64,000 nucleotides of DNA from an uncultured Rhodospirillaceae bacterium (GCA_964393375.1 CAYMTM010000001.1:258-64257), one strand, 5' to 3'; counted from the first letter of the stretch, positions 2,776 through 48,378 are shown. The notes: a model not told the origin generated them from the sequence alone. Made by a program: numbers and translations.

Positions 2776-3573
2776 TCAGGCCGCGGACGTGGCCCGCAGC
2801 GTGCGGTCGGAAGCGACGATGTCGCCGAGCTGGCGCATGAAGTCGCGGTAATACGCCGTCGTGTAATGGAAGGGCTCCAGGCTCCACTTGTGCCCGGCGT
2901 CGCCCAACCGATACTCGGGCCTGGGGCGGATGGTTCGAATCGCCGCTGAATCCGCTTCGATCCTGGCATAGTAGGTCGACAGGACCTCGTTGATCGCGTG
3001 GATTTCGTCGCGGTTCGGGAACTGGACGACCTTTTCCTCGCCGTCGAGGAAGCATTCCGACCACAGCGCTTCGTGCAGGATGGTGCGCTCGGGCGGCACG
3101 ATCGTCCCGAGCCGCCGCATGAAGCGGGGTATGTTCGAAAGCGTCGCCTCCACGACGCGTGGATCGAGCGCGCCGCGCCGTTCGAACCGGCTGGTGTCGA
3201 TGCCGTGGGCCTGGGCCGTGCGCACGAAAGGCACCGAATAGCACAGGCAGGTCTCGCCGGAGACCAGGATCGAGTGGCGCTCGTCGATCAGGTCGACAAG
3301 CAGGTAGTCGAATTCGTGCTGGGCGAGGGTGTCGAATTGCAGCTTCAGCAGGTCGATGGCGACACAACGCTCCTCGAAGGGGCGCCGCTCGACCGTCGGT
3401 GCGATCCGGTCGATCGGCGGCGCCGGTGACAGGCTCGAGTTGATCGTCGTGCGGGCGAGGTAGACCGCGATCGTCCATTCGCCCCGCGGTTCCCCCGATA
3501 GCTCGAACGCATCGCGGGTAACGCAACTTCCGAAGATGCCGAACCGCAAGGCGTTTGCCCCCTTTTTCGTCAT
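2776..3573 (-). CDS. hypothetical protein, DUF6270-like (GSCVxRD N-terminal motif); likely polysaccharide-cluster accessory enzyme
   Basis: 265 aa. The N-terminus MTKKGANALRFGIFGSCVTRDAF resembles the DUF6270 family seen next to glycosyltransferase clusters. It is divergent from the multi-GT gene and shares an AT-rich promoter region with it. Family recalled from memory. Confidence 0.5.
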   Translation of the reverse strand: MTKKGANALRFGIFGSCVTRDAFELSGEPRGEWTIAVYLARTTINSSLSPAPPIDRIAPTVERRPFEERCVAIDLLKLQFDTLAQHEFDYLLVDLIDERHSILVSGETCLCYSVPFVRTAQAHGIDTSRFERRGALDPRVVEATLSNIPRFMRRLGTIVPPERTILHEALWSECFLDGEEKVVQFPNRDEIHAINEVLSTYYARIEADSAAIRTIRPRPEYRLGDAGHKWSLEPFHYTTAYYRDFMRQLGDIVASDRTLRATSAA

Positions 3574-3682
3574 TGCGGCGCCCGGGACCTGGACACCATG
3601 GACAGGTTTATATTGACCTTTATTAAGGGACCGTTAGCCATTCGCGCGTTAGAAAAAGCTCGGCGCAAATGGAGCGAGTTAG

Positions 3683-6600
3683 ATGATAAACTCCTATATT
3701 TTTAAGGACCTTATGACCACACCTCAAACTCTTCATTTGCGCGGCGTCTGTCCTCAATTCGGTGTATTTACGCTTAATTTTATTGATGAGAACGGACTGC
3801 AGCCGCTTCACATGGCCTTCCGGGTCAGCGTCGGCCATATCGCGCTGAACGACAATCTCAAGGGCCATTGGGGTGAGGAACTTGTCATCGACAACGTCGA
3901 GTTCCCGATGGGCCTGCCGTTCGAGATCAGCATCGAACTCCTGGGCCGTCAGCGCATTCGGCTCTCGATGGACGGCTCCGTGCTCGGCGAGTTCCCCTGG
4001 CGCCATGACATCGCGGCGGCAGTACGATTGGACATGGTGGACGTCGAGTTCAGCCTGTTCCGCAACGACACCAGCTTCAAGACCCTTCCCGAGAACGTGA
4101 TTGCGCCCGAAGAAGAGGCAGCGGAGCCGGGGCAGGCGGCGGCGCGGTTCGAGGACGGTTCGGATCAATTAGCGCGGCATTTGCGCGAATTGCGCGCCGA
4201 TTACATGCAGGGGCTCGAACGGCTGGAGAACCGGATCGAGGGGATTTCGGAGGAGCTGCGCGCGCTGCAGAAGGTCGCCTCCGGCATCGCCGCCAGCGTG
4301 CAGGCCCTCATCGCGCTTGACGTGCGCGCGGTGGAATCCGCGCAGCGCCCTGCCGGCGCACCGCGGATCGCGCCGCCGCAGGCATCGCCGCGCGGACTTG
4401 TGGTGGAGGACAAGTTCGTCAAGGGTTGGGGCGACTGGCGTCACCACCAGAAAGTCAAGCTTTCCGACCTGGGCCTGTTCCAGGTGCAGCAGGAGCGCAG
4501 CACGCCCGGCATCGAGCGCAAGGCGCTCGCCGTGGAGCCGGGGTCCTATTACGAGTTCTCGGTGACGGGAAACTTCAAGGTCGCCAATCGCGAACTGTTC
4601 ATCGCCGCCTACGACCCGGACAACGATCTGACGCTGACCGCCGCCCGTTATGCCGAGAAGGAGTCGGGCACCGTCACCGAGACTTTCATGACCACCGCGC
4701 GCACCAAGCGGGTGATCCTGCGCGTCATGGTCGACCAGCCGAAGATCGGCGACGAATGCCGTCTGGAAAGCGCAAGCCTGACCCTGCTTGGGCGCGCCGA
4801 CCTCTACGCGCCGGCGCGCGCGGGAGAAGCGCAGCCAGAGGAGGGCATCTGCGCGTCGATGGCGTCGGTCGCCGGGCGCGAGGCCATGGTGGTCGACGCG
4901 GTGCTGAGCCTCTATCCCTTCGTCGACAAGGTGCGCGTGTACCTCAACAACTATTCCAGCGTGCCCGAGGGCCTGAAGCTGCCGCGCGTCGAGATCGTGC
5001 GGTCGCAGCAATACGGCGACAACGGCGACGCAGGCAAGTTCTTCTGGGTAGAGGACAAGCAATATCCGTTGAATCTGGTCTGCGACGACGACCTGATCTT
5101 TCCGCCGGACTACGTGCCGCAGATGGTTGCCGCGCTCAAGCGGTGCGGGAACAAGGCGGTCGTCGGCATCCACGGGGTGCTGTTGAAGCAACCCTCGCCG
5201 TCCTATTACGACGAGAGGTTCCGCCATGTGCGCCGCTATCCGCACGCCAACCGCGAGGACTGCCAGGTCCATGTGCTGGGCACGGGTGCGGTGCTCTACG
5301 ATCGGCGCACGCTGAAGCTCGAATGGCGCGACTTCCAGTACCGCAACATGGCCGATATATGGCTCATGGAGCAGTGCCAGAAGCAGGGCATTCCGTCGAT
5401 CTGCATCGCCCGGCCGCGCAATTGGGTGATCCAGAACCAGGTCAAGGGCGGCGTGCCTACCATCTATGACGCCTCGCACGGCCGGCAGGGCAACGGCTTC
5501 GACACCGGCGCGGTCCAGACCTATGTGGTCAACAAGAACTGGCCGGTGACACTGAAGCCAACGGTCGTCAACGGCCAACGCCGGCCGAAGGTCGTCCTGT
5601 CGATCACGACCTGGAACCGGTGCGACTACCTGAAGGAATGCATCGAATCGTTCGAGCGTACGCGCTCCACCAGGTACGATTGGGTGCTGATCGTGGCGGA
5701 CGACGGTTCGACCGACGGGACGCTCGCCTATCTCGACCAGCTCGTCCTGCCGCACGAGGTTCACGTCATCCGCAACAAGGGGCGCTATGCCTGCGGACAG
5801 ACGAATACGATTTTCGATTTGTGCCGGAAGATCGGCTTCGACTTCGCCTTCAAGATCGACGACGACATCCTGTTTAAGAAGCGCGGCTGGGACACGCTCT
5901 ATATCGAGGCCGCAGCCGCCAGCGGTTACGACCATCTCTGCCACCGGAATTGGAAGCACTTCACGGGGTTGAAGCGCCGCAACAACCCCAACTACTCGCC
6001 GCCGCCGCCGCATATCGACGCGTCGGGAAAGTGCGAGACGATCGTCGGGGTGTGGGAGTGCGACGGGTGCCTGTTCACCTTCACGCCGACGATGATCGAA
6101 AAGGTGGGTTATTGCGACGAGGCCAATTTCCCGATCCGCGGCCAGTGGCATATCGACTACTCGATCCGGGCCTGCCGTGCCGGCTTCAACGACGCCAAGC
6201 ACTTCTACGACGCGCGCGACAGCAACGCCTATATCGAACTGCAGGCCAACAAGCCGACCTATCGCTGCTCGCTGCCCTGGGGCGACGCGTACAAGAAGAC
6301 CAAGGAACCGGCGGAGCTCGAGCGCCGCGAGCGGGTGATGCGCGACGAGAGCCGTGTCTACGTGGCGCCGGTGAGCGCGCCGGCGCCGCTGCGGCGGCCG
6401 TTGCGGGCGGCGACGTTCTTCGACAAGGTCTACGTGCTGAACCTCGACCGCCGGCCCGATCGGCTGGCGACGGTCAGTGCGCATCTGAAGCGCCTGGGCA
6501 TTCCGTTCGAGCGCTATGCGGCAGTGGACGGCCGCGCCAAGCCGCATATCGACGAGTGGAGCGTCTATCAAAAGCAGCCCCTCGTAACCGCCCCCGAGGG

Positions 6601-7306
6601 CGTACGCAAGCTGACGCGGTCCAAGGACTTCTACCAGAACTACGACAGCCACGTGGCCCGCGTCGCGTTCATGGAGGGCCAGCTGAAGGCCAAGGCGATC
6701 CGTACACCCGGCGCCTGGGGCTACTTGAAGAGCTATATCGGCATCCTCGAAACGGCGCTGAAGGCCGGGTACGAGTCGATCCTCGTGCTGGACGATGACG
6801 CGCTGTTCCACCGCGACTTCGACGCGCTGTTCCAGGCTGCGGCCAAGGAACTTCCGCCGGATTGGGCGATCTTCCAGCTCGGCGCCCTGCAATACGATTG
6901 GGGCGACCAGTGGATCGCCAAGTATTCCGAGCACCTCTATATGTGCAACGGCTCGAGCGTCGGCTCGCATGCCACCGGCATCCGGCGCAGCGTGCTGCCC
7001 GCCCTGCTGCACGAGGCACAGCGCTTCGACATGCCGCTCGACGTCGGTGCGCTGTGCCGGGTCAAGCGGGCCTTTGCGGAGCGCAGCTTCACCGTCCTGC
7101 CGAACTTGGTCATCCAGGACACCAGCGAGAGCGACATCGCGTCCTCCGATGTCCAGCAGGCCGAGGGGATGAAGAAGACGAATATCTATCGCTGGAAGCT
7201 GGAAGACTATCCGGGCGCGATCGTGGAAGCGGACGCCAGGCAGCGCAACCCGCGCCGTCCGGCCGCCAAGCAGGCGCAAGCGGCCGCCATGACGGGTACG
7301 GACTGA
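3683..7306 (+). CDS. 1207-aa multidomain glycosyltransferase: N-terminal galectin-like lectin domain, coiled coil, beta-sandwich, then three GT domains (GT-A with DDD motif, GT2-like, GT25)
   Basis: SD GGAGCGAG before the ATG.
- aa ~40-110: LHMAFRVSVGHIALNDN..GHWGEEL..FPMGLPFEISIEL parallels the galectin CRD motifs HFNPRF / VCN / WGxEE / FPF..F.I.I.
- aa ~150-215: heptad-rich coiled coil.
- aa ~400-600: GT-A fold with LVCDDDLIFPPDY.
- aa ~635-900: SITTWNRCDYLKECIESF..LIVADDGSTDGT (GT2-like).
- aa ~915-1150: FFDKVYVLNLDRRPDRL (the GT25 LPS/LOS galactosyltransferase signature).
The first ~120 nt of the coding region is AT-rich. Confidence 0.8.
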   Translation: MINSYIFKDLMTTPQTLHLRGVCPQFGVFTLNFIDENGLQPLHMAFRVSVGHIALNDNLKGHWGEELVIDNVEFPMGLPFEISIELLGRQRIRLSMDGSVLGEFPWRHDIAAAVRLDMVDVEFSLFRNDTSFKTLPENVIAPEEEAAEPGQAAARFEDGSDQLARHLRELRADYMQGLERLENRIEGISEELRALQKVASGIAASVQALIALDVRAVESAQRPAGAPRIAPPQASPRGLVVEDKFVKGWGDWRHHQKVKLSDLGLFQVQQERSTPGIERKALAVEPGSYYEFSVTGNFKVANRELFIAAYDPDNDLTLTAARYAEKESGTVTETFMTTARTKRVILRVMVDQPKIGDECRLESASLTLLGRADLYAPARAGEAQPEEGICASMASVAGREAMVVDAVLSLYPFVDKVRVYLNNYSSVPEGLKLPRVEIVRSQQYGDNGDAGKFFWVEDKQYPLNLVCDDDLIFPPDYVPQMVAALKRCGNKAVVGIHGVLLKQPSPSYYDERFRHVRRYPHANREDCQVHVLGTGAVLYDRRTLKLEWRDFQYRNMADIWLMEQCQKQGIPSICIARPRNWVIQNQVKGGVPTIYDASHGRQGNGFDTGAVQTYVVNKNWPVTLKPTVVNGQRRPKVVLSITTWNRCDYLKECIESFERTRSTRYDWVLIVADDGSTDGTLAYLDQLVLPHEVHVIRNKGRYACGQTNTIFDLCRKIGFDFAFKIDDDILFKKRGWDTLYIEAAAASGYDHLCHRNWKHFTGLKRRNNPNYSPPPPHIDASGKCETIVGVWECDGCLFTFTPTMIEKVGYCDEANFPIRGQWHIDYSIRACRAGFNDAKHFYDARDSNAYIELQANKPTYRCSLPWGDAYKKTKEPAELERRERVMRDESRVYVAPVSAPAPLRRPLRAATFFDKVYVLNLDRRPDRLATVSAHLKRLGIPFERYAAVDGRAKPHIDEWSVYQKQPLVTAPEGVRKLTRSKDFYQNYDSHVARVAFMEGQLKAKAIRTPGAWGYLKSYIGILETALKAGYESILVLDDDALFHRDFDALFQAAAKELPPDWAIFQLGALQYDWGDQWIAKYSEHLYMCNGSSVGSHATGIRRSVLPALLHEAQRFDMPLDVGALCRVKRAFAERSFTVLPNLVIQDTSESDIASSDVQQAEGMKKTNIYRWKLEDYPGAIVEADARQRNPRRPAAKQAQAAAMTGTD

Positions 7307-7376
7307 CCGCAGGGCGCCGGGACGCGGCCGAGTGCCGCCCAGCGGCGCCCGATCCGGGGCGGGAACGGAGACCCAC

Positions 7377-9989
7377 GTGATCCCCCGAATCCTTCATTAT
7401 GTCTGGGTCGGCGGTCGGCCGCTGCCGGAGAAATCCAGGATCAATATCGAGACCTGGAAGCGGTTCTGCCCGGATTTCGAGATCCGGGCCTGGACCGACG
7501 ACAACGTCGCCTTCGACCGGCCATACCTGGCGCGCTGCCGGGCGCTCGGCCACTGGGCCAACGCGTCGAACTACTTGCGGCTGGAGAAGCTGCTGGAGCA
7601 CGGCGGAGTCTACCTGGACGTCGATATCATGATGCGCCGGACGTTGGCACCTATGCTGCGAAATCGCTGTTTCCTGGGATTCCAGGTCGAGGCCCAGGAG
7701 AACGACTGGGTCAACAATGCGGTCTTCGGCGCCGAGCCCGCCCACTGGTTCGTTGCGCTGTGCCGCGACCGCCTGCTGGCTGAATTCGACGGCGCCGAGC
7801 CGGCGAACCACTCCTCGCCCCGATTGGTGACAAGGCTCCTGCTCGAGCAAGGATTGACCCGCTATCGCCCGGGCGGCGTAATGGTGCGGGACGTCCGTGT
7901 CTATCCGCAGCCGGTATTCTATCCCTACTCGTGGAAGGAGGAGTTCACGCTGGGGGCGATCAGGCCGGAGACGGCGACGGTGCATTTCTGGGAGAAATCC
8001 TGGCACATTGATGCGGCTGCCCGACCGGTCGGCGACGAGGAATTGCGTGCGCGGCTGGCGAGGCTCGAGATCGCGCATCATCGCCTGATCCGCGACGCCG
8101 TGCTGGCGGTCGCGCCGCGGCCCGAGGGTCGGTGGTCGTGGGCGGGACTTCGCTATTGGTTCCAGCGCCTGGGCCGTCCCCGCCGGCACGCGGTCAGGCC
8201 GCTGCTACTGGCGGGCGCGACGTCCTTGTGGGCGTTGCTTGCGTCGCCGGTTCTCGCGGCAGCCGCTTGCGGCCTTTCTTTCGACGATGCCGGCTTGCGC
8301 GCAGGCCCGGTGGTAACCGGCGGGGCGACGGTCAGGCGGGTGGGGTGCGCATCCGACGCCGCCTCTACCCATCATTGTATCGCCATCGTGCTGGAAAGCG
8401 GCGATCGTGCGTCCGTGGCGCGCTTTACCGCCGCCGCCCCGCGGCCGTACCGGCTTTGGCTGCGGGTAGGCACCGATGCGCGGTCGGGCAAGATGCGGCT
8501 GGGACTCAACGACGGCCCGGTGCGCGACTGGTTCGTTCCGCCGACGCAGGCCGGTAACTGGCAGCTTGTTACGCTGCCGGACGGTAGGACGCCCGCGATG
8601 TTCGATCTCAAACCGGGCGAGAACAGCCTGCGTATCGAGCCGCCGACCGATGGCAGGACCGTCGCGGCGGCGGATTGCGCCGTATTGTCGGCCGACCCGC
8701 ATTTCATCCCCACCTTCACGGCCGTGCACGAGCTCGACCGCGCCTGGTCGGGCGTCGGCGTGCTGTTCGACGCCTTGGCCGACGAGCGCAACGTCTATGT
8801 CGGCTATTACAATGCCGAGCGGATGCTGTCGGCGGCATCGTTCGATCGCGACACCAGATCGTGGCGCCGCGTGCCGCTGGCCAGCCGGTTCGAGGGCTGG
8901 GACAACCACAACGCCATCGCTCTGGCGCTCGACAAGGCGGGCAATCTGCATGTCGCCGGCAACATGCATGCCTCGCCGCTGGTCTATGCCCGCACGGCCG
9001 AGCCGCGCCGCCTGGAAACGTTGCAGCTGCTCAACCGCATGGTCGGGTCGGACGAGGCCAGGACGACCTATCCGACCTGGGTGGCGATGCCCGATGGCGG
9101 CTTGGCCTTCATCTATCGCTCGGGCGTTAGCGGGACAGGGCAGCACGTCATCGACGTCCTGGTCGACGGCCAGTGGCGCCGGCAAGGCGACGCGGCGCTG
9201 TTCGGCCAGGCTTCCGGCGGCTTCAGCGCCTATCCGACCGATCCGCTGCGCGGACCGGATGGCCGGCTGCACATGGCCTGGGTTTGGCGGCGGACGTCGG
9301 AGGCGCAGACGACCTTCCAGGTTTCCTATGCGCGCAGCCGGGACTTGGTTCACTGGGAAGACGCGGCCGGCAAGCCGCTCCAGTTGCCGCTGCGGCCGGG
9401 GCCGATGGGCGTGGTCGACAACGTGCCGGAGCGGGCGGGCCTGGCCAACCAGGTGGTCCTTGGGTTCGACGCCGAGGGCCGGCCGATCGTCTCCTACCTG
9501 AAGTTCGACGCCAAGGGCGCGACACAGCTCTACAACGCGCGGCCGACGGCCGCGGGGTCCTGGCAGATCGTCCAGACCAGCGACTGGCAGGACCGTTGGG
9601 AATTCGAAGGCCGCGGCACGATCCAGGCGCTGGTCCGCCTCGAGGCGGCGGCAGTGGACGATGCCGGGGCGCTGGTCCAGGGGGTGCGGCACTGGCGCGC
9701 CGGTCGGTTCGAGTTCGTGCTCGATCCCGGAACGCTGCGGCCCGTGGCGGCGCGTCCGCCCAAGCGCATGCTGCCCTGGGTGCTGACCCAGCCGAGCACG
9801 GACGAGCCCGGCTTCTTCGCGATTGCGATCCCGGTCCGCGACGCGCGGGCCGCCGGCAAGCCGACCGGCTTCGTCCTGCGCTGGGAGGCGCAGAACAGCG
9901 ACCGCGACGCAATGCCTGCCTGCACGCCGCAGCGCCCGCGCGCCTGCGACCCGCCGCCGTCGCTGTTGACGGTGTTGGAGAAACGATGA
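7377..9989 (+). CDS. glycosyltransferase (sugar-binding DXD-region family, GT32/Gly_transf_sug-like) fused via a TM segment to a C-terminal BNR_4-like beta-propeller domain
   Basis: GTG 7377 has SD GGAGA 7 nt upstream; ATG 7332 is an in-frame alternative. The N-terminus has ILHYVWVGG..P and YLDVDIMM (DXD), typical of the sugar-binding DXD GT family. A hydrophobic stretch LLAGATSLWALLASPVLAAAA follows at aa ~280-305. The C-terminal ~550 aa carries repeated His/Trp-rich blades (NLHVAGNMHASPLVY, RLHMAWVWRRT) resembling BNR_4-type propellers. The propeller assignment is tentative. Confidence 0.65.
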   Translation: MIPRILHYVWVGGRPLPEKSRINIETWKRFCPDFEIRAWTDDNVAFDRPYLARCRALGHWANASNYLRLEKLLEHGGVYLDVDIMMRRTLAPMLRNRCFLGFQVEAQENDWVNNAVFGAEPAHWFVALCRDRLLAEFDGAEPANHSSPRLVTRLLLEQGLTRYRPGGVMVRDVRVYPQPVFYPYSWKEEFTLGAIRPETATVHFWEKSWHIDAAARPVGDEELRARLARLEIAHHRLIRDAVLAVAPRPEGRWSWAGLRYWFQRLGRPRRHAVRPLLLAGATSLWALLASPVLAAAACGLSFDDAGLRAGPVVTGGATVRRVGCASDAASTHHCIAIVLESGDRASVARFTAAAPRPYRLWLRVGTDARSGKMRLGLNDGPVRDWFVPPTQAGNWQLVTLPDGRTPAMFDLKPGENSLRIEPPTDGRTVAAADCAVLSADPHFIPTFTAVHELDRAWSGVGVLFDALADERNVYVGYYNAERMLSAASFDRDTRSWRRVPLASRFEGWDNHNAIALALDKAGNLHVAGNMHASPLVYARTAEPRRLETLQLLNRMVGSDEARTTYPTWVAMPDGGLAFIYRSGVSGTGQHVIDVLVDGQWRRQGDAALFGQASGGFSAYPTDPLRGPDGRLHMAWVWRRTSEAQTTFQVSYARSRDLVHWEDAAGKPLQLPLRPGPMGVVDNVPERAGLANQVVLGFDAEGRPIVSYLKFDAKGATQLYNARPTAAGSWQIVQTSDWQDRWEFEGRGTIQALVRLEAAAVDDAGALVQGVRHWRAGRFEFVLDPGTLRPVAARPPKRMLPWVLTQPSTDEPGFFAIAIPVRDARAAGKPTGFVLRWEAQNSDRDAMPACTPQRPRACDPPPSLLTVLEKR

Positions 9990-10831
9990 CCGAGCCGCGC
10001 AAGTTCGACGGGGTGGGCGGTCGCCTCGTCGTACTGGCGGTCACGACGTTCAACCGCCGCGACTATCTGCGCGAATGCCTGGAATCCTGGGCGGCGACGC
10101 GCAACCCCGCCTATCGCTGGCTGGTCGTCGTCGCGGACGACGGCTCGACCGACGGCACGCTGAATTATCTCGAAAAGCCCGACATCCCGGCAGATTGCCA
10201 TCTGATCCGCAATGTCCGACGCGGCGCAGGCGGCCAGACAAACACGATCTTCCAGCTCTGCCGCCGGCTGGACTACGCCATCGGCTTCAAGATCGACGAC
10301 GACCTGGTCTTCAAGCGGAAGGGCTGGGACGACCTTTACATCAATGCCGTTCGCAGGAGCGGCTACGAGCATCTCTGCCACCTGAATCTGCGGCTGTTCA
10401 ACGCCGAGCGTCGCCCGCCGGTGCCGCTCTCGGCGGGCAGGCCGCTGGCCCTCGACCCGTCGGGGAGCTGCGCCGCCTACACCGACGTATACAACTGCAT
10501 GGGCTGCCTGTTCACTTTCACCCCCAGGCTGCTCGCGGCGGTTGGCAATGTCGATGAGTCCAACTTCCCGATCCGCGGCGACTGGCATATCGACTATTCG
10601 GCCCGCGCGGCACGCGCCGGCTTCAACCGCGTCGACACGTTCTTCGACGCCCGCGACAGCGGCCGCTATATCGACATCCAGAACAACCTGAAAAGCGTCT
10701 ATCAGCATACGATCGCGCCGCACAGCGCGCAGATGCGCGCCGTCTCCAGCCCCGCCGAGATCGAACGCCGGCGCAAGGTGGTGCGTGACGAGACCCGCGT
10801 CTTCGTGGAGATGGCAAAAAAGGCGGGCTGA
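9986..10831 (+). CDS. GT2-like glycosyltransferase, paralogue of the middle domain of the 1207-aa protein
   Basis: Its ATG overlaps the upstream stop as ATGA at 9986-9989. The 281-aa product (VVLAVTTFNRRDYLRECLESW..VVVADDGSTDGTL..FKIDDDLVFKRKGWD..CMGCLFTFTP..NFPIRGDWHIDYS) aligns residue-for-residue, at roughly 50-55 % identity, with aa ~635-900 of ORF 3683..7306. The longer 9173 start in the track is an off-frame extension. Confidence 0.75.
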   Translation: MTEPRKFDGVGGRLVVLAVTTFNRRDYLRECLESWAATRNPAYRWLVVVADDGSTDGTLNYLEKPDIPADCHLIRNVRRGAGGQTNTIFQLCRRLDYAIGFKIDDDLVFKRKGWDDLYINAVRRSGYEHLCHLNLRLFNAERRPPVPLSAGRPLALDPSGSCAAYTDVYNCMGCLFTFTPRLLAAVGNVDESNFPIRGDWHIDYSARAARAGFNRVDTFFDARDSGRYIDIQNNLKSVYQHTIAPHSAQMRAVSSPAEIERRRKVVRDETRVFVEMAKKAG

Positions 10832-10873
10832 GCCCCTATAATGCCGGCAGCGAAGCCCGGGAGGAGGGCGGCA

Positions 10874-11290
10874 ATGCCGGTGATTTATGTGGCAAGGAGC
10901 TTGTTGCTGCAGAAGTGGAGCGCCGAGGTGGGGCTCGGCAAGCACGTCTACAAGGTCGGGATCGGCGAGGGCAAGGCAGCCGAGATCGAAGCGGCGCTCA
11001 ATGCGCAGAGCCTGGCCGGAATGACTGACTGGAAGGCATTGAAAGTGCAGAAGCTCGATGAACCGGTCGACGAGGCCGCCGCGCTCGCCCGGCTGGCCGG
11101 GCGCGAGAAGGAGATCGACCCCAATTTCTATCCCCGGATCCGGGGCGCACGCGGCATCTTCAAGGTGAAGGTCGAGAACGTCGCCAATTCATTGCTGGTG
11201 CAGCAGGCGCTCGGCACCGGCGAGCTGAAGATCGACAAGGTGAAACCCGCCGATATAGCCGCCTACCTGATCCGCAACGCAATCGAGTAG
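10874..11290 (+). CDS. small hypothetical protein (possible GIY-YIG/T5orf172-like N-terminal motif)
   Basis: 138 aa from ATG 10874, preceded by SD GGGAGGAGGG. The N-terminus PVIYVARS...HVYKVGIGEG loosely resembles T5orf172/GIY-YIG openings. No confident family assignment. The 10841 ATG is an in-frame alternative. Confidence 0.45.
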   Translation: MPVIYVARSLLLQKWSAEVGLGKHVYKVGIGEGKAAEIEAALNAQSLAGMTDWKALKVQKLDEPVDEAAALARLAGREKEIDPNFYPRIRGARGIFKVKVENVANSLLVQQALGTGELKIDKVKPADIAAYLIRNAIE

Positions 11291-11295
11291 ACGGG

Positions 11296-12258
11296 CTATG
11301 ATCCCGGAAAATGACAGGCCGCGGCCTGGGGCCCGGTCGCGCGCAAGCCGGGCTCTTGCGCTGCGCAGATCGCCTGCGCCTTGGGACAGCGCGTCCGGAA
11401 GCGGCAGCCCGATGGCAGGTTGCCCGGATCGGGCGGCTCGCCCTCCAGCCAGAAATCCCGGGTGACGCGGGCGCCGCCGATCTTGGGGATCGCGGCCAGC
11501 AGCGAACGTGTATAGGGATGCTGCGGCCGGTCGAAGATCGCCTCGACCGGACCGGTCTCGACGATCCTGCCCAGGTACATCACCGCCACGCGCCGGCACA
11601 TCATGCGCACGACCGCAAGGTCGTGGCTGATCAGGATGTAGGTGAGGCTGAATATGCGCCGGAGGTCGGCGAACAGGTTCAGCACCGTCGCCTGCACCGA
11701 GACGTCGAGACCGGAGGTCGGCTCGTCGAGGATCACCACCTTGGGCTGCAGCGTCAGGATGCGTGCCAGGCCGACACGCCGCTGCTGGCCGCCGCTGATC
11801 TCGTGCGGGTAGAGGTCGAGATGCGTCGCGGGCAAGCCGACCGCGGCCATGATCTCGCGCACCCGCGCCTCGCGCGCCGCGGCCGAAAGGTCGGTGTGGA
11901 TGACGAGCGGCTCATGCAACGACGAACGGATTTTCCAGCGCGGGTCGAGCGAGGTGCCAGGGTCCTGGTAGGCGTATTGCAGGTGTCGGCGCAGAGCACG
12001 GCTCTTGCTCGGCTTGACCCCGGCGATCTCGGCGCCCTCGAAGCGGATGCTGCCGGCGTCGGGCTGATGGATGCCCATGATCGTCTTGCCGAGCGTCGAC
12101 TTGCCGCAGCCGCTTTCGCCAACCAGGCCGATGATCTCTCCCGGCATCAGGTCGAACGAGACGTCGTCCAGCGCCTTGATCCAGCCGATGCGCCGGTTGA
12201 AGGCGCCCCGGATGGGGAAGTAGCGGCGCAACCCGCGAATGCTGAGGATCGGTTCCAT
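11296..12258 (-). CDS. ABC transporter ATP-binding protein (oligopeptide/dipeptide DppF/OppF type)
   Basis: Walker A GESGCGKST, signature LSGGQQQRV, Walker B ILDEPTS, and a C-terminal oligopeptide-type extension with Cys residues. Start at MEPILS, 5 nt after the upstream ATPase stop (translational coupling). Confidence 0.85.
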   Translation of the reverse strand: MEPILSIRGLRRYFPIRGAFNRRIGWIKALDDVSFDLMPGEIIGLVGESGCGKSTLGKTIMGIHQPDAGSIRFEGAEIAGVKPSKSRALRRHLQYAYQDPGTSLDPRWKIRSSLHEPLVIHTDLSAAAREARVREIMAAVGLPATHLDLYPHEISGGQQRRVGLARILTLQPKVVILDEPTSGLDVSVQATVLNLFADLRRIFSLTYILISHDLAVVRMMCRRVAVMYLGRIVETGPVEAIFDRPQHPYTRSLLAAIPKIGGARVTRDFWLEGEPPDPGNLPSGCRFRTRCPKAQAICAAQEPGLRATGPQAAACHFPGS

Positions 12259-31947: not shown

Positions 31948-33753
31948 TCAGAAGGTCGAGCTGCCGCGCACCGGCGCCGCATCGCCGCGGTAAAGAGCCG
32001 CGGCCGTATCGACGGCAGCCGTCAACGCGGCGGCTTGCGCCTGATCGCCGGCGGCGCGGAGGCGGGCGGCAAGCCATTGGCTGACTTCGAACGCGAATTC
32101 CACCTGCCCGAAGACTTCGGCGATCACTGCAAGCTTGATGGTTTGGTTCGTGTCAAGGGCCGTGAGCCCGCTGCTGCCGTCCGCGTCGACGGGATCACGC
32201 AAATACAGCGAATGCCCCTCGATCAGTTGGCCCCAGCTCGACACGAGTTGGCCCAGGCGGCCCACGAAGCCCGGCAAATGCTGGACGACGACCGGCGCCG
32301 CGGCACGCCCGACATAGTGATGGGCGACCAGGTCGAAGAAGGTGAATCCGGCGCGACGCAGGAAGGCGTCGATGTCGGAGAAGAACGGCCGCGCGAGATA
32401 GGATTCGACGAAGGCGGTCTCGGCCAGCACGCCCAGCATCCCGTCGAGGCATGGGCCGGCGGCTGCCAGAATGTCCAGCTCGGCACCTTGCACGTTGAGC
32501 TTGCAGAAATCGATCGCGGGGACGCCGGCGGATGCGGCCCATCGCGCGATCGAGGTGACCGGCATGTCCACGGTGCGCTCGGGCCGGAAAATCTCGCGCG
32601 CAAGCGACGTTTGGTGCGGGTTCTCGAACCGCCACCGGTCCGTGACCTTTGTGTTCTGATCGAGAAACGAACTGCCGCCGCTTGCCTTGTTGACGTGAAA
32701 GGGCAGCCTGCCGTCGTCCTTCCAAAGGCCGACCGGATAGTAGGCGCCCTGATAGCCGAGGTCGCGCAGGGTGCGGTTGAGGCGCTCGCATTCCGGCGGG
32801 TCCGGCTCGAAGCCGTGGAAGGAAAGGCGGTCCGCCGGCAGCTCGCGCCAGCGCGGATCGGCATGGGCGTCGCGCGCGCCTCCATCGAGCACGACAATCC
32901 GTTCGCCGCGCGGCAGCATTGCCAGGAGTCCCGGCGCAAGGCGCAGCCGCGGCTCCGGCTGGCGCGTTGGCGCGGCAGGGTTAGCCGTCCCGGCGCCGTC
33001 GGCCTCTCCAGCTCCGTCCAGATAGCTCGCCACTTGCCGCGCGATCTCGCCGATGTTGCGGCTGCCCGTCTGCTGGCGCGCCAGGTGGACCACGGCTGCC
33101 CATCCGCCCTCGTTGGAGGGATCGCGGCGCAAGAGGCCCTGGAAGACCCGCGCGGAGTCGGCGAAGCGGCCCAAATGGGCAAGCACCTGGCCCAGCGTGG
33201 CGCGCGCCGTGAGGTTGGCGGGATCGAGCGCGATCGCTTCCTCGAAGGCGGCAAGCGCGTCGTCGTAGCGCCCAAGCCGGGCATGGATGCTGCCGAGCTG
33301 AAACCAGGTATCGGCGCGGCGCGGCGCGAGCGCGCTTGCCACCCGGGCAAGGCGCTCGGCCTCGGCGGGATGGCCGGCATCGACGGCAGCGACGGCCGCC
33401 CCGAGAGCCGCGTCCGGATCGGAGACGCGCTCGATCAACGCCGAGAGTTCCGCCGCGCGCCCCGCCCTTACCAGCGATCCAAGCAGTTCCGTCTGCGCGA
33501 GCCGGCCCGCGCCGCGGCCAAGCCCATCCTGCAAGGCAGCGATTTTGAGCGGCAGTCCGCCGTGCACTTCCAGGAACCTGCCGAGGGCGGCCCAGGATTC
33601 ATCCGAGTCCGGCACGAGGCGCACGGCACGCGCATAGGCCCACTGTGCGTCGTGGAAACGACCGCGCCGGGCCAGGTAGGTCGCTTGCAGGCGCCCCAAC
33701 AGCCCAAACCGATGGCGGGCCGCGGAGACAAGCCGTTTCAGGTGCTGCTTCAT
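31948..33753 (-). CDS. TPR-repeat protein fused to an FkbM-family methyltransferase domain
   Basis: N-terminal TPR-like Ala/Leu repeats (AEAERLARVASALAPRRADTWFQLGSIHARLGRYDDALAAFEEAIALDP). The C-terminus has the FkbM signature (FHGFEPDP...IDFCKLNVQGAELDIL). The start at ATG 33753 is uncertain because there is no clear SD. Confidence 0.7.
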   Translation of the reverse strand: MKQHLKRLVSAARHRFGLLGRLQATYLARRGRFHDAQWAYARAVRLVPDSDESWAALGRFLEVHGGLPLKIAALQDGLGRGAGRLAQTELLGSLVRAGRAAELSALIERVSDPDAALGAAVAAVDAGHPAEAERLARVASALAPRRADTWFQLGSIHARLGRYDDALAAFEEAIALDPANLTARATLGQVLAHLGRFADSARVFQGLLRRDPSNEGGWAAVVHLARQQTGSRNIGEIARQVASYLDGAGEADGAGTANPAAPTRQPEPRLRLAPGLLAMLPRGERIVVLDGGARDAHADPRWRELPADRLSFHGFEPDPPECERLNRTLRDLGYQGAYYPVGLWKDDGRLPFHVNKASGGSSFLDQNTKVTDRWRFENPHQTSLAREIFRPERTVDMPVTSIARWAASAGVPAIDFCKLNVQGAELDILAAAGPCLDGMLGVLAETAFVESYLARPFFSDIDAFLRRAGFTFFDLVAHHYVGRAAAPVVVQHLPGFVGRLGQLVSSWGQLIEGHSLYLRDPVDADGSSGLTALDTNQTIKLAVIAEVFGQVEFAFEVSQWLAARLRAAGDQAQAAALTAAVDTAAALYRGDAAPVRGSSTF

Positions 33754-34083
33754 CCGAGCGATCGAACTTGCGGAGGGGCGAAGGGCCGCAGAGTAGCGGG
33801 TTTCTGTTCGCGCGAGTAGGCCCCTTCGCCACGCGACCGGAGGCCCGGTGCACCCGGTTGCCCGCATGGCGCAGCCAGCGCGGCGCGAGCCGTGCGGGCC
33901 AAGCGTGACAGTCGGCATCGCGATAGATATATAGGGCCGTCGCTGAGCGTCCATGACGGCGAAGGGCGAAACCGGAGTAGGGGCTAGGACAACCAGTCCG
34001 AAGACTGCTTTGGCGCAATCTGGCTACTCCTGAAGACGTGACAGATAAAGAGGGGCGCGTGGTCCAATGCGCCAGGAGCGATT

Positions 34084-36780: not shown

Positions 36781-39700
36781 CTACCCGAATACGAACTGTT
36801 GTGCGGCGAGTTGGGCGATGGTGGTGTTCTGGAGGAGGATGGAATTGTTGGCGTCGAAGGCGATGGTGACGCCGGCGGCGCTCTGGGACATGTGGGCCTG
36901 GAGTTGGGCGAAGGTGGAGATGCCGTAGAGGTTGGCGTCGTTGAGCAGGATGGTGTCGCCCTGGGATGGGGTGAAGTCGGCGATGGTGTCGCGGCCGCCC
37001 GAGAACTCCCAGACGAACTGGTCGGCGCCCGCCCCGCCGGTCAAGGTGTCGTTGCCCATGCCGCCGGTGAGGAAGTCGTTGCCGTTGCCGCCCTGCAGGA
37101 TGTCGTTGCCCGAGTTGCCGTAGAGGTAGTCGTTGCCGTCGTCGCCCTGGACCAGGTCGTCGCCGGCGCCGCCGAACAAGAGGTCGATGCCGCCGCCGCC
37201 GGCGATGGTGTTGTTGGCGGTGCCGCCGTAGACCAGCTCGTTCTTGGCGCTGCCGGTGTAGTTGGCGCCGGCGCCGGTCTGGACCAGGATGTCGCCGCTG
37301 TCGAGGTAGCTGCCGTCGGCGAGCTTGGGCGTGACGTTCCACAGCGGGTTGTCCTCGAACGACCCCTTGGCGAGGTTGAAGGTCTGGGCGATGACGTAGC
37401 CGTAGGCCTCGACCGCCTGGGCCGAGCCGGTGGCGCTGACCAGCGTGGCCATGGCGGCGCGGGCCTGGGCGGCGTAGCCGCCGGACCAGTCGGGATAGCC
37501 CTCCATGGTCATGGTGGCGGAGGCGGTGGCGGGGTCGTAGCCGGAGGCCTGGTAGGCCTCGGCCCAGGTGTCGAGATAGTTGCCCTGGGCGTCGCGGATG
37601 GCGAGGTTATAGGTCGGGCCGGCGGCGGGGTTGTAGCCGAGCTCGCCGCTGGTGAACCGCCCGGCGGAGAAGTTCTCCATCCAGGCCAAGAGCGTGCCGG
37701 CGTCGGCGTAGCCGCGGCTGTAGGCCTCGCCGAGCACGGTGATCAGGTAGTCCTGCTGCCAGGGGGCCATGATCGTGCCGCTGCCGTCGCCGTAGTAGGA
37801 ATCGATCCAGCCCTCGAGCTGGCCGGCGGCGTCGTTCCTGCCGCCGGTGACGTAGGTCTGGACCAGGTAGGCGAGGTTGGATTTGACCAGCCCGTCGAAG
37901 TAGGCCTTCATCGGATCGCCGTTGGGGGTGATGTAGGCGGCGTCCATCAGGTCGCGCAGGGTCCAGGCCAGCGCGCGCAGCTGCTCGGCGCCCGGCGACA
38001 TCACCCCGCCGCCCTCGGTGTAGTAGGGGTCGCGCATGGCGATCTCGGTGGCGGCCTGGGCCTGCAGCTCGTCGAGATAGTAGTGGCTGCCGGTGAAGAG
38101 ATAGGGCAGGTAGCTGAGCGCCGGCGGGTGGGCCAGGTCCGGCGTCCAGCCGGCCAGGCTGGCGCCGCTGGGATAGTCCGGGATGCTGCCGGCGCCGGTC
38201 CCGCGCGAGTCGATCCACAGGTTGGGGTGCTGGTCGACGCGTACCGGGTTAGAGGTCGCCTCGTCGGTGTAGTGCCAGGGCACCGCCCCGGCGGCGTCGG
38301 CCTGGGCCAGCATGACGTCGAGCGCGCGGGCGTCCTGGGTCAACAGATAGCGCGCATACCATTCCGGGATCGGGCCGATATCCGGCCGGCCGCCGGTCTG
38401 CGGCATGTACTGCAGCACGAAGGCCGCGCCCAGCGGGCCGGTGTCGGCCGCCGCCAGCGCGGCGTAGTCGCCCGCCACCGCGGCCGCGTCGACCCCCTGG
38501 GCGGTGTCGAGCGCCGGCACCGCGCCGGTCTTGATCAGGTAGTCGACGTCGCGCTGCACGTTGATCGAAGGCTCGCCCTTCAGCCACGCCTCGACGTGCC
38601 AGGTCGAATTGGCGTGGTGGAACATGTTGGCTTCGCTGTAGACCACCGTGGCGCCCTGCTTGACCGCCACGTCGTAGGTGAAGGAGTTGATGCCGGGCGT
38701 GAAGGTCGAATCGTTGGCCAGGATCACGTCGGTCATGACGTTGCCGTCGGCCGTCACGCGGATGTCGAAGATCGCCTTCAGGCCCGTCGTCAGCGTGGTC
38801 TGGACGCGGAACTCCGAGGCCTGGCTGCCGCTCATCCAGGTCTCGACCGTGCCGTTGGCGATCGAGCTCTGCAGCAGCTGGGCGACGTTGACCGACTTCA
38901 GGGTGGTGGTGCCGTTGGCGTTGTGCAGGTTGACGTCGAGCGTCACGTTGAGGCCCTTGGCGATCGCGTCCTGCGCGGTCAGGACGGCGCCGCCCGCGGC
39001 CGCCGCGTGCTTCAGCATCACGTCGACCTCGCCGTTGCCGGCCAGCGCCGGCGCCTGCAGGGTCAGGATCGCGTGGCGCACCGAGCCGTCGGCGTTGAGC
39101 GCCTTGACGTCGATCTGCACCGGCACCGAAACGCCGTTGATCGCCGCCACCAGCCCGGTCCCCGGCATCAGGTCGCCGGCTTTGAACACCTGCCCGAACG
39201 AGACGATCGCCGCCGCCTGGGCCGAAGCCGAGGTGTTCTGCAGGGTCATGCCCACCAGATCGCCCGCCGCGCTCGCCGCCGGCACGTCCGGCACCGCGAT
39301 CAGCCCCGTCGTGCTGCCCCCCGTGGAGCCGCCCGTGGAGCCGCCGGTGGAGCCGCCCGTGGAGCCGCCCGTGGAGCCGCCCGTGGACCCGCCGGTGGTG
39401 GTCCCGCCATTGGTCAGGTCGATCACCCGGTCGGCGAACCTGGCGTACTCCACCGAAACCAGGTGGTCGCTGCCCTCGGCCAGCCCGGCGCCGGCGGTGC
39501 CGGTGATCTGCCACGACCCGTCGGCCAGCTTCGCCACCGTGTAGTCGGCGTAGTTGCCCTGGAACACCGCCGTGTCGCTGCCCGTGCCGCCGTCCAGCCA
39601 GTCGTTGCCGCCCCCGCCTTTCAGCGTGTCGTCGCCCGCCATCCCCAGCAGCGTGTCGCCCCCCGACCCGCCGGTGATCGTGTCGTGCCAGCCCGCCCCC

Positions 39701-42700
39701 TGCAGCGCCGAAATCCCCGTCAGCTTGGTGGCGGAGAAGTCCAGCACGCTGCCTTCCCACGACCCCACCACCGTGACGTTGGCATAGCCGCCCGCCGAGA
39801 CCTCCTCGATCCCGCTCGCGGGCGCGAAGTTGCGCAACTGGATCGTCGTGCCGGCCTGCGTCGCCAGGATGATGTCGTAGCCCGCCGTCCCGGTGTCGAC
39901 GATCGTGTCGATGCCGTCGGCGGTACCCCCCACCAGGTAGGTGTCGCTGCCCTGGCCGCCGTCCATCGTGTCGTCGCCGCCGCCGCCGCGGATCACGTCG
40001 TTGCCGGCCCCGCCCCAGATCGTGTCGTGCCAGCCCCCGCCGTTGATCGCCACGATCCCCGTCAAGGTCGTGTTGCGGAAGTCCAGCACGCTGCCGCTCC
40101 ACCAGCCCTGGATCGTCACGTTGGCGTAGCCGTTGGCGGTGATCTCCTCGATCCCGCTCGCGCTCTTGAGCCCGATCGCCGTGCCGGCCTGCGTCGCCGC
40201 GATCCGGTCGAAGCCGGAGGTGCCCGTATCGGCGATCGTGTCGTAGCCGTCCCCGGTGCCCCCCACCAGGTATATGTCGCTGCCCTGGCCCCCGTTCAGC
40301 GTGTCGTCGCCGCCCGCCCCGCGGATCACGTCGTTGCCCGCGGTCCCGTTCAGCACCTCGCCCGAAGCCGTGCCCACGATCGTCGGCGTGTACGTCACCG
40401 TCCCCGCCGAAACCGGGTCCACCACCACGCTCAAGCTTGCCGTCGCCGTCGCCGTCGCGCCCCCGTTCGACTCCGTCGACGTCGCCCTGACCGTCAGCAC
40501 GAAATCCGCGTCCGAGTTCGCCGGCGGCGTGATCTTCAGCCCCGACAACTGCGAAGCCGTCAGCAGCCACGTCCCGTTGCCCTGGTTCGTCCCCGCCGAA
40601 AGCGTCGCCCCCGCCGGAACCCCGGAAATCGTCACCGACAGGCTCTCCGAACCGTCCAGGTCCGTCAGCGCCGCCGAAATGTTCAACCCAATCGCCGTGT
40701 TCACCAGGCCCTGCGCCGGCGAAACCGACAGCGTCGGCATCGACGCCGTCGTGTCGACCGCCGGCAGCGTCACCGGCAGGATCGCCGTGGTCGTCGCCGT
40801 AGATCCGCCGGTCGCCTCCGTCGACTTCGCCGTCACCGTCAGGCTGAAGCTGCTGGAGTTCGCCGGGGGCGTGATGGTCAGGCCGGAAAGCTGGGCCGGC
40901 GTCAGCAGCCACGTGCCGCCGCCCTGGTTGGTCCCCGCCGACAGCGTCGCCCCGGTCGGCACTCCGGCGATCGTGATGGACAGTGACTCCGACCCGTCCG
41001 TGTCGGTCAATGCCGCCGCTATGTTGAGCGGCACCGCCCCGGAGCCCGATCCCGACGCCGGCGACAGGGTCAGGCTCGGCGCGTCGGCCACCGCCGCGAC
41101 CGTCACCGGCAGGCTTGCCGTCGTCGTCGCCTTGGCCCCGCCGTTCGATTCGGTGGACGTGGCCGTCACCGTCAGCGCGAAGTCTGCGTCCGAATTGGCC
41201 TTCGGCGTGATCGTCAGGCCGGAAAGCTGCGCCGGGGTCAGCAGCCACGTGCCGCTGCCCAGGTTGGTGCCGGCCGACAACGTGGCGCCGGCCGGAACGC
41301 CGCTGATCGCGATCGACAGCGTCTCCGACCCGTCGAGATCCGTCAGCGCCGCCGCGATGTTCAGCGCGATCGGCTTGTCCTCCTGGCCAGAGGCGGCCGA
41401 AACGCTGAGCGTCGGCTTCGACGCGGTGATGTCGCCCGACAATCCGCCCGAGGCGAGCTGGCTGACCGCGATCGTGGTGTCGGCGAAGCTGATGAAACTG
41501 ATACCCTGCAGCAGGTCGGTACCGTCGCCGCCCACGTTGTCGCGCACCGTCACGTTGCCGTTGGCCGCAAGGGTCACGGAATAGTTCGCCGCGGCGCCCC
41601 TGAAGACGGCCGTATCGACGCCGCCGCCGCCGATCATCGTGTCGTTGCCGCCGCCGCCGGAAAGGGTATCGTTGCCGGCATTGCCCCTCAGCGTGTTGGC
41701 CAGCGCGTTGCCGGTCAGCGATGCGCCCGTGGTAAGACCGATATTGCCCCACTCGACGTTCGCCGCCAGCGTATAGGCCTGGATGAACGTGCCGACGCCG
41801 TCGTTTCCGCCGCCGGCCGCCTCGATCACCACATCGTTGGCGCTGTAGATGCCGTAGATGTCGTCCCCGGCGCCGCCGATCAGCGTGTCGCCGCCGCCCA
41901 TGCCGAGCAGCACGTTGTTGCCCGCGTTGCCGACCAGCGTCTCGCCGCCACCAGCCGTGCCCCATCCGGTCAGATTGCCGGTGCCCCCGAGTTCGAGGAT
42001 CTCCACGTTCGCCGCGATGGTCGTGTTATCGACGAACGTAATCATGCGGTCGGCCGTGCCCTGGCCCGCCGCCTCGATCACCACGTCGCCGGATTGGTCG
42101 ATATAGTAGGTGTCGTTGCCGGCACCTCCCGACATCGCGTCGGCGCCGGCGCCGCCGTTCAGGACGTTGTCGCCGCTGTTCCCGTAGAGCGTATCGTTGC
42201 CGGCGCTGCCGGCGCCCGCCAGGTTGCCGCTGCCGGTCAGCCGCAGCACCTCGACATTGGCGGAAAGCGTGTAGCTGACGCTGGAATAGATCGTGTCGAT
42301 GCCTTCGCCGGCGTTCTCGGCCACCACGTCGCCGGACGAATCGACGAAATAAGTATCGTCCCCGGCCCCGCCGATCATCGTGTCGTTGCCGGCGCCGCCC
42401 GTCAGCGTATCGTTGCCGGCATTGCCCCTCAGCGTGTTGGCCAGCGCGTTGCCGGTCAGCGATGCGCCCGTGGTAAGACCGATATTGCCCCACTCGACGT
42501 TCGCCGCCAGCGTATAGGCCTGGATGAACGTGCCGACGCCGTCGTTTCCGCCGCCGGCCGCCTCGATCACCACATCGTTGGCGCTGTAGATGCCGTAGAT
42601 GTCGTCCCCGGCGCCGCCGATCAGCGTGTCGCCGCCGCCCATGCCGAGCAGCACGTTGTTGCCCGCGTTGCCGATCAGCGTCTCGCCGCCGCCGGCCGTG

Positions 42701-44418: not shown

Positions 44419-44689
44419 AGCAGCATCCTCGCGAAGGCTTTGGCTTCCTAGGCGCCGTCTACCTTTGCGGGCATGCCCTTGGGCCGCATGCCGCGCCCAC
44501 TTCGCGGGGCGCTGGGACCGCTTCAGACGACGCGCCGACCCGTCCGTGCTGTGGTTTTGCCCAGGTCGGACCGACGCTTAATGGTGTGGATAACTCTCTT
44601 AAGGAAAACCTAAGTGTAATGATGAAGCGTTTACTAATGCTTCCAATTTTCGCTGATCTTGAAGCAAGTTAAACGGCAGAAAACACAAC

Positions 44690-47341: not shown

Positions 47342-47377
47342 TCTCGTTCGACAGGTCCGGAGAAAGGAGACCTCCGA

Positions 47378-48337: not shown

Positions 48338-48378
48338 GGGAGCGGGCGGCGCATCCGCCTGCGAGCCGGCATCGAATA

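Follow-up and report, generated by a model that had tools for sequence, protein, structure and literature searches.

Several polysaccharide biosynthesis operons encode a periplasmic enzyme that cleaves glycans, such as AlgL (alginate), BcsZ (cellulose), PslG, PelA and ExoK. In these systems, the degradative enzyme is a separate polypeptide, and the operon also encodes a synthase or an exporter. Other membrane systems join or process their parts: AcsAB is a fusion of BcsA and BcsB, the cyclic-glucan synthase Cgs combines GT84 with GH94, and LtaS is cleaved by signal peptidase. Here, we describe a gene of an uncultured Rhodospirillaceae bacterium in which a GT32-type glycosyltransferase (GT) and a predicted polysaccharide lyase (PL) of the PL42 type share one open reading frame (ORF). 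The gene lies in a stretch of 64,000 nt (GCA_964393375.1 CAYMTM010000001.1:258-64257), called the window below, and all positions are counted from its first letter.

Each part of the fusion protein belongs or is related to a known family (GT32, a CBM6/35-like fold, PL42; CBM: carbohydrate-binding module), and the themes are familiar. What appears to be new, judged from the sequence, is the joining of GT32 to a PL42-type lyase across the membrane and the biosynthetic context of a lyase family known only from catabolism. We consider it reasonably probable that the protein combines a cytoplasmic GT with an accessory periplasmic lyase, which would process the glucuronate-containing glycan of its operon.

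The likeness to AlgL, BcsZ, PslG, PelA and ExoK is that a degradative enzyme, predicted to be periplasmic, is co-encoded with GTs. Unlike these enzymes, the PL42-type lyase belongs to a different family, is dispensable, has no linked exporter and is fused to a GT, as predicted across the membrane. With Cgs and AcsAB, the protein shares the presence, on one polypeptide, of a domain for synthesis and a domain that cuts or binds chains; with AcsAB, it also shares that the same two functions are fused in some genomes and split in others. As in LtaS, release of the extracytoplasmic domain by signal peptidase is possible. However, the families are different from those of AcsAB, LtaS and Cgs, Cgs has both domains in the cytoplasm, and none of the three pairs GT32 with a PL42 propeller. 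Literature searches turned up no account of a GT-PL42 fusion.

An initial annotation of the window had placed an ORF at 7332..9989 on the forward strand. This ORF is present and uninterrupted; it has 885 aa when counted from GTG 7332, and its codon composition is of the coding type (GC content at codon positions 1/2/3, GC1/2/3 = 0.69/0.53/0.85). The start at GTG 7332, an upstream in-frame GTG, was probably set 15 codons too far 5'. GTG 7377 is the likely start because GGAG (7367-7370) lies 6 nt 5' of it and because all eight homologues begin with MIPRI at the matching point. The residue numbers given here count from this codon. All motifs quoted in the annotation were found: HYVWVGG (aa 7-13), DVD (81-83), NLHVAGNMHASPLVY (523-537), RLHMAWVWRR (630-639) and WQIVQTSDWQ (729-738). 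The full-length AlphaFold2 (AF2) model had a mean predicted local distance difference test score (pLDDT) of 67, with 70-90 over the C-terminal part; the input alignment was shallow, with eight sequences only.

The strongest domain match was that of BNR_4 (PF15892) to aa 474-737, with an E-value of 2.2e-64 and 217.9 bits against a Pfam cut-off of 27.3. In the AF2 model, the region had a pLDDT of about 70-90, and AF2 together with Foldseek gave a seven-bladed fold, which bears out the BNR-like propeller proposed at the outset. The best Foldseek matches were the GH145/PL42 structures 5MUM, 4IRT, 5MVH and 5MUK (E ~1e-18, target-normalised TM-score 0.66-0.70), followed by 7ESK (FoRham1) and then by PL25 and PL24 ulvan lyases. 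Among proteins of solved structure, BT3686 (5MUK) was the closest in sequence, at 1e-31 with the single sequence and 4e-42 with a profile. The PL42 lyase FoRham1 matched at 1e-14 with a profile.

In FoRham1, His85 is the base/acid catalyst, His105 is its helper and Arg166 neutralises the glucuronate carboxylate; Tyr150, Ser170, Tyr202 and Arg220 make contacts at the cleavage site and the glucuronic acid (GlcA, +1) subsite, and Asn275/Gln276 contact the rhamnose (PMC8377490). HMMER alignments placed His85, His105 and Arg166 at H511, H531 and R581 of the fusion protein. Tyr150, Ser170, Tyr202 and Arg220 corresponded to Y565, S585, Y619 and R638, and Asn275/Gln276 to N691/Q692. Two of these residues lie inside motifs of the initial annotation (H531 in NLHVAGNMHASPLVY, R638 in RLHMAWVWRR). 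Among the eight fusion proteins, only N691 varied (Thr in P0008); every other mapped residue was invariant. After relatives at 31-62% identity had been added, H511, H531, Y565, R581, Y619 and R638 were still invariant.

BT3686 keeps His90, His110 and the Arg of the FoRham1-type set, and yet proteins of the BT3686 type, with these residues conserved, had no lyase activity in vitro (PMC8377490). What makes BT3686 a rhamnosidase is His48 on the posterior face. The fusion protein has no counterpart of it: the equivalent is expected about eight residues before YY 477-478, there is no His in aa 452-476, and the nearest His (451) is Tyr in P0007. The NCBIfam equivalog model of BT3686 (NF052497) scored 141 bits against a cut-off of 700. 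Since the PL42 catalytic set is kept, His48 is without a counterpart and the equivalog score is far below its cut-off, we infer that the propeller is a lyase-type PL42 relative, neither a hydrolase of the BT3686 type nor only a lectin. The activity is a predicted one. The initial annotation had offered carbohydrate binding or processing as the role of the propeller; binding alone does not fit, and the processing part of the proposal gains from the full PL42 lyase catalytic set.

The protein therefore resembles the PL42 (formerly GH145) proteins FoRham1 (7ESK) and BT3686 (5MUK) in the BNR_4 family, the seven-bladed propeller, the His/His/Arg of the anterior face and the substrate-site residues. 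The identity to the PL42 L-rhamnose-alpha-1,4-D-glucuronate lyases is only about 20-25%, and the fusion protein adds a CBM-like module and a C-terminal extension with a Cys pair. Known PL42 members are free secreted catabolic enzymes, whereas this propeller is part of a biosynthetic operon and is joined to a GT.

The propeller does not fill the C-terminal part. The ~550 aa that had been assigned to it comprise a beta-sandwich of ~155 aa and a propeller of ~420 aa. The former has a fold of the CBM6/CBM35 type (aa 298-452), lies between the hydrophobic segment and the propeller, and had been missed. No Pfam family matched aa 299-471 at E<=0.1. As there is no sequence-level family membership, the module is called a CBM6/35-like fold only.

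At the N-terminus, Gly_transf_sug (PF04488) matched aa 17-99 with 38.9 bits (Pfam cut-off 23), and Gb3_synth matched aa 120-209 with 23.4 bits (cut-off 22.3). The DXD motif is D81-V-D83 (codons 7617-7625), and both Asp residues were invariant in the eight fusion homologues. With two families above their cut-offs and an invariant DVD, the GT32/DXD glycosyltransferase of the initial annotation was confirmed. Features shared with the GT32/Gly_transf_sug enzymes (Och1, A4GALT/Gb3 synthase and A4GNT; the toxins TcdA/B and SetA) are the N-terminal IP-x-I-H-x-x-W-x-G, the DXD motif and the Gb3_synth C-terminal region. Matches in the PDB to toxin GTs and SetA were short and weak, and restricted to the N-terminal and DXD motifs. 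In eukaryotes, GT32 enzymes are Golgi proteins of type II: their anchor is at the N-terminus, and their catalytic domain faces the lumen. In contrast, the catalytic domain of the fusion protein is N-terminal and predicted to be cytoplasmic, and the hydrophobic segment comes after it. In the linker, AF2 placed helices at 220-244 and 255-264 with low pLDDT.

The fusion protein has exactly one hydrophobic segment (aa 272-303), with a Kyte-Doolittle 19-mer peak of 1.83. A segment was found at the same place in all eight homologues (peak 1.5-1.9). In the fusion protein, its core (aa 272-297) ends in LAAAA directly before the invariant Cys298. The 15 residues before the segment contain five K/R and the 15 residues after it two (2-6 and 0-2, respectively, in the eight homologues). 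No N-terminal signal was present, and an enzyme that uses nucleotide sugars must face the cytoplasm. Among the eight fusion proteins, six invariant Cys follow the segment (298, 324, 334, 434, 849 and 857) and one precedes it; the six suggest three disulfides in an oxidising compartment. A crude test found a signal-peptide-like N-terminus in 83 of 137 BNR_4 relatives. When the sequences were aligned on the invariant Cys, the segment of the fusions coincided with the N-terminal signal peptide of the split forms (L022, P0009, L011). Small residues are retained at -3/-1 (AAA/C, AEA/C, AGA/C and ALA/W, with the slash after position -1), and a Pro or Gly stands a few residues upstream.

The lack of an N-terminal signal, the K/R bias, the Cys after the segment, the homology to signal peptides and the N-termini of the BNR_4 relatives all argue for a bitopic inner-membrane protein with an N-in/C-out topology. 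Signal peptidase I may cleave the segment, which would yield a soluble periplasmic CBM-lyase and a tail-anchored GT. Such cleavage is a live possibility because the segment is weak, its apolar run is short and the small -3/-1 residues are kept. Of the membrane anchor in the initial annotation, the single hydrophobic segment therefore stood up. The anchor role became less certain in view of the marginal hydrophobicity, the AXA-type motif and the homology to signal peptides. A lipoprotein with a lipobox at Cys298 was considered and rejected: the -3 residue is Ala, not Leu/Val/Ile, and five of the homologues have 4-5 residues between the AXA-like motif and the Cys.

The architecture is rare. Among 5.8 billion sequences, a word-indexed search found eight full-length clusters of the same architecture at 52-100% identity, drawn from assemblies of NCBI, JGI and Logan, and a profile of the eight sequences returned the same eight proteins as the single sequence. 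Exhaustive HMMER on 1.84 billion 50%-identity representatives gave 8236 matches. Among the best 150 of these, one was full-length (P0004), and the remainder had the lyase half only or the GT32 half only. The architecture had been called unusual, and these counts agree with that. The fusion was also found in two genomes of the GTDB (metagenome-assembled genomes, MAGs), one Rhodospirillales and one Rhodospirillaceae. No fused homologue was found on plasmids (PLSDB, tblastn). All carriers are uncultured Alphaproteobacteria.

The operon proteins were compared with related loci by tblastn, and the states of the operon were read from these matches and from ORF maps. The common gene order is the gene of a 1207-aa multi-GT protein, the GT32 gene, the lyase gene where present and the gene of a 281-aa GT2 (Table 1). 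The order multi-GT, GT32(-lyase), GT2 was found in seven lyase-bearing loci of six lineages (the window, L002, L005, L006, L008, L022 and the decayed L011). The 1207-aa gene adjoins the GT32 gene in every related locus. GT32 and the lyase were adjacent or fused only within this operon: none of 79 more distant BNR_4 loci had these GTs nearby, and a metagenome scan with lyase patterns returned 80 loci, with the operon only in L022. A scan of the genome collection used patterns derived from GT32; it returned GT32 relatives and revealed operons without the lyase.

Table 1. Features of the fusion gene and its neighbourhood (window coordinates)
Feature	Coordinates	Strand	Details
Fusion gene: GT32, signal/anchor segment, CBM-like module, PL42-like propeller (likely start GTG 7377)	7377..9989	+	870 aa
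GT32-type glycosyltransferase domain	7377..8021	+	aa 1-215; Pfam, invariant DXD
Linker: variable, helix-rich, Arg-rich	8022..8189	+	aa 216-271; AF2, alignment
Single hydrophobic segment: signal-anchor or internal signal peptide	8190..8267	+	aa 272-297; hydropathy, homology
CBM6/35-like beta-sandwich	8268..8732	+	aa 298-452; invariant Cys 298, 324, 334, 434
PL42-like (BNR_4) seven-bladed beta-propeller and C-terminal extension	8733..9986	+	aa 453-870; Pfam, AF2, fold and sequence matches
Catalytic-set codon H511	8907-8909	+	
Catalytic-set codon H531	8967-8969	+	
Catalytic-set codon Y565	9069-9071	+	
Catalytic-set codon R581	9117-9119	+	
Catalytic-set codon Y619	9231-9233	+	
Catalytic-set codon R638	9288-9290	+	
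C-terminal Cys pair (849, 857)	9921-9923 and 9945-9947	+	
Multi-GT protein without transmembrane segment	3683..7306	+	1207 aa; galectin-like 11-116, KfiA/PmHS2-like GT45 385-586, GT2 641-769, GT25 914-1086
GT2	9986..10831	+	281 aa; ATG overlaps the fusion gene stop (ATGA)
Hypothetical protein, conserved in closest relatives only	10841..11290	+	149 aa (138 from internal start)
DUF6270 gene, divergent, only in closest relatives (L002, L003)	2776..3573	-	membership of the unit doubtful

In the 1207-aa protein, aa 385-586 matched the heparosan synthases PmHS2 (8VH7, 4.6e-24) and KfiA (5Z8B, 1.4e-14), and a DDD motif is present. Unlike KfiA and PmHS2, the matching region is part of a protein of five modules that also has galectin-like, GT2 and GT25 parts, and kps-type export genes are not nearby. 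The GT2 domain of the 1207-aa protein matched chondroitin synthase weakly and is 52% identical to the 281-aa GT2, which is hence a paralogue within the operon. KfiA is the alpha-GlcNAc transferase of heparosan synthesis and makes GlcNAc-alpha-1,4-GlcA. PL42 enzymes cut the sugar-alpha-1,4-GlcA bond (PMC8377490). Because the KfiA-like domain would make, and PL42 would cut, this type of bond, the operon product may contain 4-substituted glucuronate, the bond type for the fused lyase; the case is circumstantial but coherent. A galectin fold on a bacterial cytoplasmic multi-GT protein is unusual in itself.

The fusion has relatives in which the parts are separate or one part is missing. The fused state was found in the window, L002-L004, L005/L007, L006 and L008, the split state in L022 and L011, and the lyase was absent in L009 and L010. 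In L022, the GT32 gene ends in LWRRLGALLQ followed by TGA, and the ATG of the lyase gene overlaps this stop (ATGA). The lyase gene of L022 reads MRPAMIARRTPALLVFAVASGLISSIALAAQPSTCGQ..., in which a classical signal peptide precedes the conserved Cys, the CBM and the propeller. Another protein of this kind, P0009 (54% identical), stands alone, and the lyase gene of L011 looks decayed. The GT32 protein of L009 has 285 aa with a hydrophobic stub at its end. That of L010 has 279 aa without a hydrophobic tail, and its stop overlaps the GT2 start.

By GT2, the closest relative of the window is the lyase-less L009 (84%, compared with 81% for the fused L002), and the lyase-less L010 is closest to the split L022 (76%). 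In the simplest reading, the lyase would have been lost at least twice, and the fused or split state would have changed at least once. The lyase part diverges faster than the GTs: between the window and L005, its identity is ~52%, and that of both glycosyltransferases is ~71%. The GT32-lyase pairing was kept down to ~50% lyase identity and across five or more genomic neighbourhoods. Because sister lineages have the lyase unfused or lack it, this part is probably accessory and not core to synthesis.

We propose that two neighbouring genes, coupled in translation, became fused in frame to encode the present protein, and that its putative anchor was once the lyase signal peptide. The DXD-dependent GT32 domain would work in the cytoplasm with the two other GT proteins of the three-gene operon. 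Together, the three proteins would provide five GT domains, one of them KfiA-like, and would assemble a glycan or glycoconjugate, probably with glucuronic acid, at the inner face of the membrane. Housekeeping machinery encoded elsewhere would then move the glycan across the membrane. In the periplasm, the CBM6/35-like module and the PL42-type propeller would bind it, and the propeller would cleave by beta-elimination at a sugar-(1->4)-glucuronate bond. The outcome may be trimming, uncapping or clearance, as with AlgL, BcsZ, PslG and ExoK for their polymers. The trimming suggested in the initial annotation is thus plausible. Its idea of coupled export found no support, as no exporter was seen in or near the operon in any lineage.

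Several results weigh against this proposal. No flippase, ABC exporter, Wzx/Wzy, synthase or UDP-glucose dehydrogenase was found near the operon (within 10 kb on either side in any lineage; the ORFs of the window were scanned). This makes the link between product and substrate indirect. As the other operon proteins also have no transmembrane segment, any export would use machinery encoded elsewhere. The lyase part is dispensable, being missing in L009 and L010. The alignments to FoRham1 span only residues 51-315 of its chain, so that Tyr26, Arg331 and Glu381 of the -1 (rhamnose) subsite lie outside. The AF2 model of the GT domain is poor (pLDDT 30-80 over aa 1-215, from the alignment of eight sequences). 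The segment is weak, with a crude position-independent Hessa sum of +1.9 to +5.2 kcal/mol for the best 19-mer. Moreover, some BNR_4 relatives are found in catabolic contexts; one example is a plasmid-borne relative in Asticcacaulis, which adjoins TonB-dependent receptors.

One alternative, that the fusion results from an error of assembly or sequencing or is a frameshift pseudogene of two genes, is effectively refuted. The split form does differ from the fused one by a frame change at the ATGA overlap, and a near-identical variant of P0002 has a frameshift in the linker. However, the same open frame was found in eight clusters at 52-100% identity, in independent NCBI, JGI and Logan assemblies and in two GTDB MAGs, and the coding-type GC3 extends along the whole frame. 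The fusion is real, not an artefact. The variant in question, P0162, lies on a JGI contig of 4.3 kb, and its frameshift just after the linker Gly run (EPGPPGGG) leads to a GT32-only product of 287 aa. The frameshift may be an error of sequencing, or it may reflect natural variation that switches the lyase part on and off. A refinement of the favoured explanation is that the segment is an internal signal peptide that is fully cleaved, giving two independent mature proteins. The fusion would then serve only co-expression and give the GT a C-terminal tail anchor. The segment aligns with the signal peptides of the split forms, has small -3/-1 residues with Pro/Gly upstream, and combines a short apolar run (16-28 residues in the homologues) with a positive crude insertion energy. 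P0006 to P0008, however, have poorer -3/-1 motifs, and cleavage behind an internal signal after a folded domain of 270 aa is uncommon in bacteria. We give complete cleavage a modest chance.

Two further alternatives concern the role of the propeller. The lyase could be a periplasmic scavenger of nutrients from foreign rhamnose (Rha)-GlcA or ulvan-like plant/algal glycans, with an accidental linkage to the GT. All characterised PL42, PL24 and PL25 enzymes are catabolic (PMC8377490), BNR_4 relatives occur with GH-like, ThuA and Laminin_G domains and beside TonB-dependent receptors, and L009 and L010 lost the lyase domain but kept the GT operon. Nevertheless, we regard the scavenger as unlikely: the pairing persists through the divergence and the changes of neighbourhood described above, it is both fused and ATGA-coupled and occurs only inside this operon, and uptake or catabolic genes for the products do not travel with it. 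The propeller and the CBM could also form a non-catalytic periplasmic unit (lectin, guide or sensor) that binds glycan and positions or regulates the GT, much as BcsB serves BcsA. The fold matches include lectins with a seven-bladed propeller (PLL, PHL), a CBM-like module is present, and the BT3686-type proteins without lyase activity in vitro provide a precedent (PMC8377490). A purely binding role seems improbable given that the base/acid His, the helper His, the neutralising Arg and the +1 residues are strictly invariant over ~50% divergence.

Propeller lyases of the families PL42, PL24 and PL25 are known solely from the catabolism of plant or algal glycans. A lyase with an intact catalytic set in a GT operon suggests that the bacteria themselves make a glycan with a sugar-1,4-glucuronate linkage, and the same context points to a role of this PL42-type family in biosynthetic processing. 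The propeller could represent a new lyase specificity, and heparosan-like or Rha-GlcA substrates are the obvious candidates. Moreover, the series of fused, split and absent states offers a natural view of a signal peptide becoming an internal signal-anchor, as well as 'Rosetta-stone' evidence that both enzymes belong to one pathway. A more specific scheme, for which we see only a slim chance, is a make-and-break cycle. An alpha-retaining transferase of the operon in the cytoplasm (GT32 or KfiA-like) would transiently cap glucuronate with a sugar through an alpha-1,4 bond, and once the glycan has crossed the membrane, the periplasmic PL42 domain would remove the cap by beta-elimination. If this were true, the mature surface glycan would end in 4,5-unsaturated glucuronate. 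The protein would be a transmembrane quality-control device that caps for export and uncaps outside, and a polysaccharide lyase family would have a biosynthetic instead of a catabolic role.

The wider BNR_4 family occurs in both biosynthetic and catabolic settings. On plasmid pOB3b2 of Methylosinus trichosporium OB3b (L102), a secreted BNR_4 protein with 36% identity and the same C-terminal Cys motif lies amid methyltransferases and multi-domain GTs. The glycan cluster of L102 includes a GT with WsaF_N. At 8251-10242 of L102, a 663-aa BNR-4 protein is annotated, which was considered as a second enzyme-lyase fusion and rejected: a remnant of an IS6 transposase is merged in frame with the secreted BNR_4 gene.

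The flanks of the operon differ in every lineage. In the window and L002, they contain opine/sarcosine-oxidase-like genes, a gamma-glutamyltranspeptidase and an Opp-type transporter. In L005/L007 (operon at 4833-11950 in a Rhodospirillales MAG), a phage-type integrase and a DUF5906 protein (2922-4205, reverse strand) are located directly upstream. In L005 and L006, the operon is followed by MarR, a response regulator, a GMC oxidoreductase and a dehydratase, and L008 and L009 again have other flanking genes. The integrase and the DUF5906 protein next to the operon hint at a mobile module. GC3 was similar across the fusion domains and the neighbouring genes, and there is therefore no compositional sign of a recent foreign origin. 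A promoter/terminator scan found zero promoter-like sites, and the terminator-like sites were below the shuffle mean. No tRNA gene was found in the window by a tRNA scan.

Elsewhere in the window, a 2598-aa protein (36784-44577, reverse strand) carries 15 stretches of RTX calcium-binding nonapeptide repeats and is probably a type I secretion substrate. A 691-aa protein (31951-34023, reverse strand) combines tetratricopeptide (TPR) repeats with an FkbM-type methyltransferase domain. TPR repeats also occur in an 863-aa protein (60842-63430, forward strand), together with a glucodextranase-B-like domain and a caspase (Peptidase_C14) domain. The run at 47342-52091 (forward strand) encodes ZnuA, a 506-aa protein without a Pfam match, a CobW-type GTPase and a WD40 beta-propeller protein; the genes may form a cluster related to zinc, in which the WD40 protein would be unusual.

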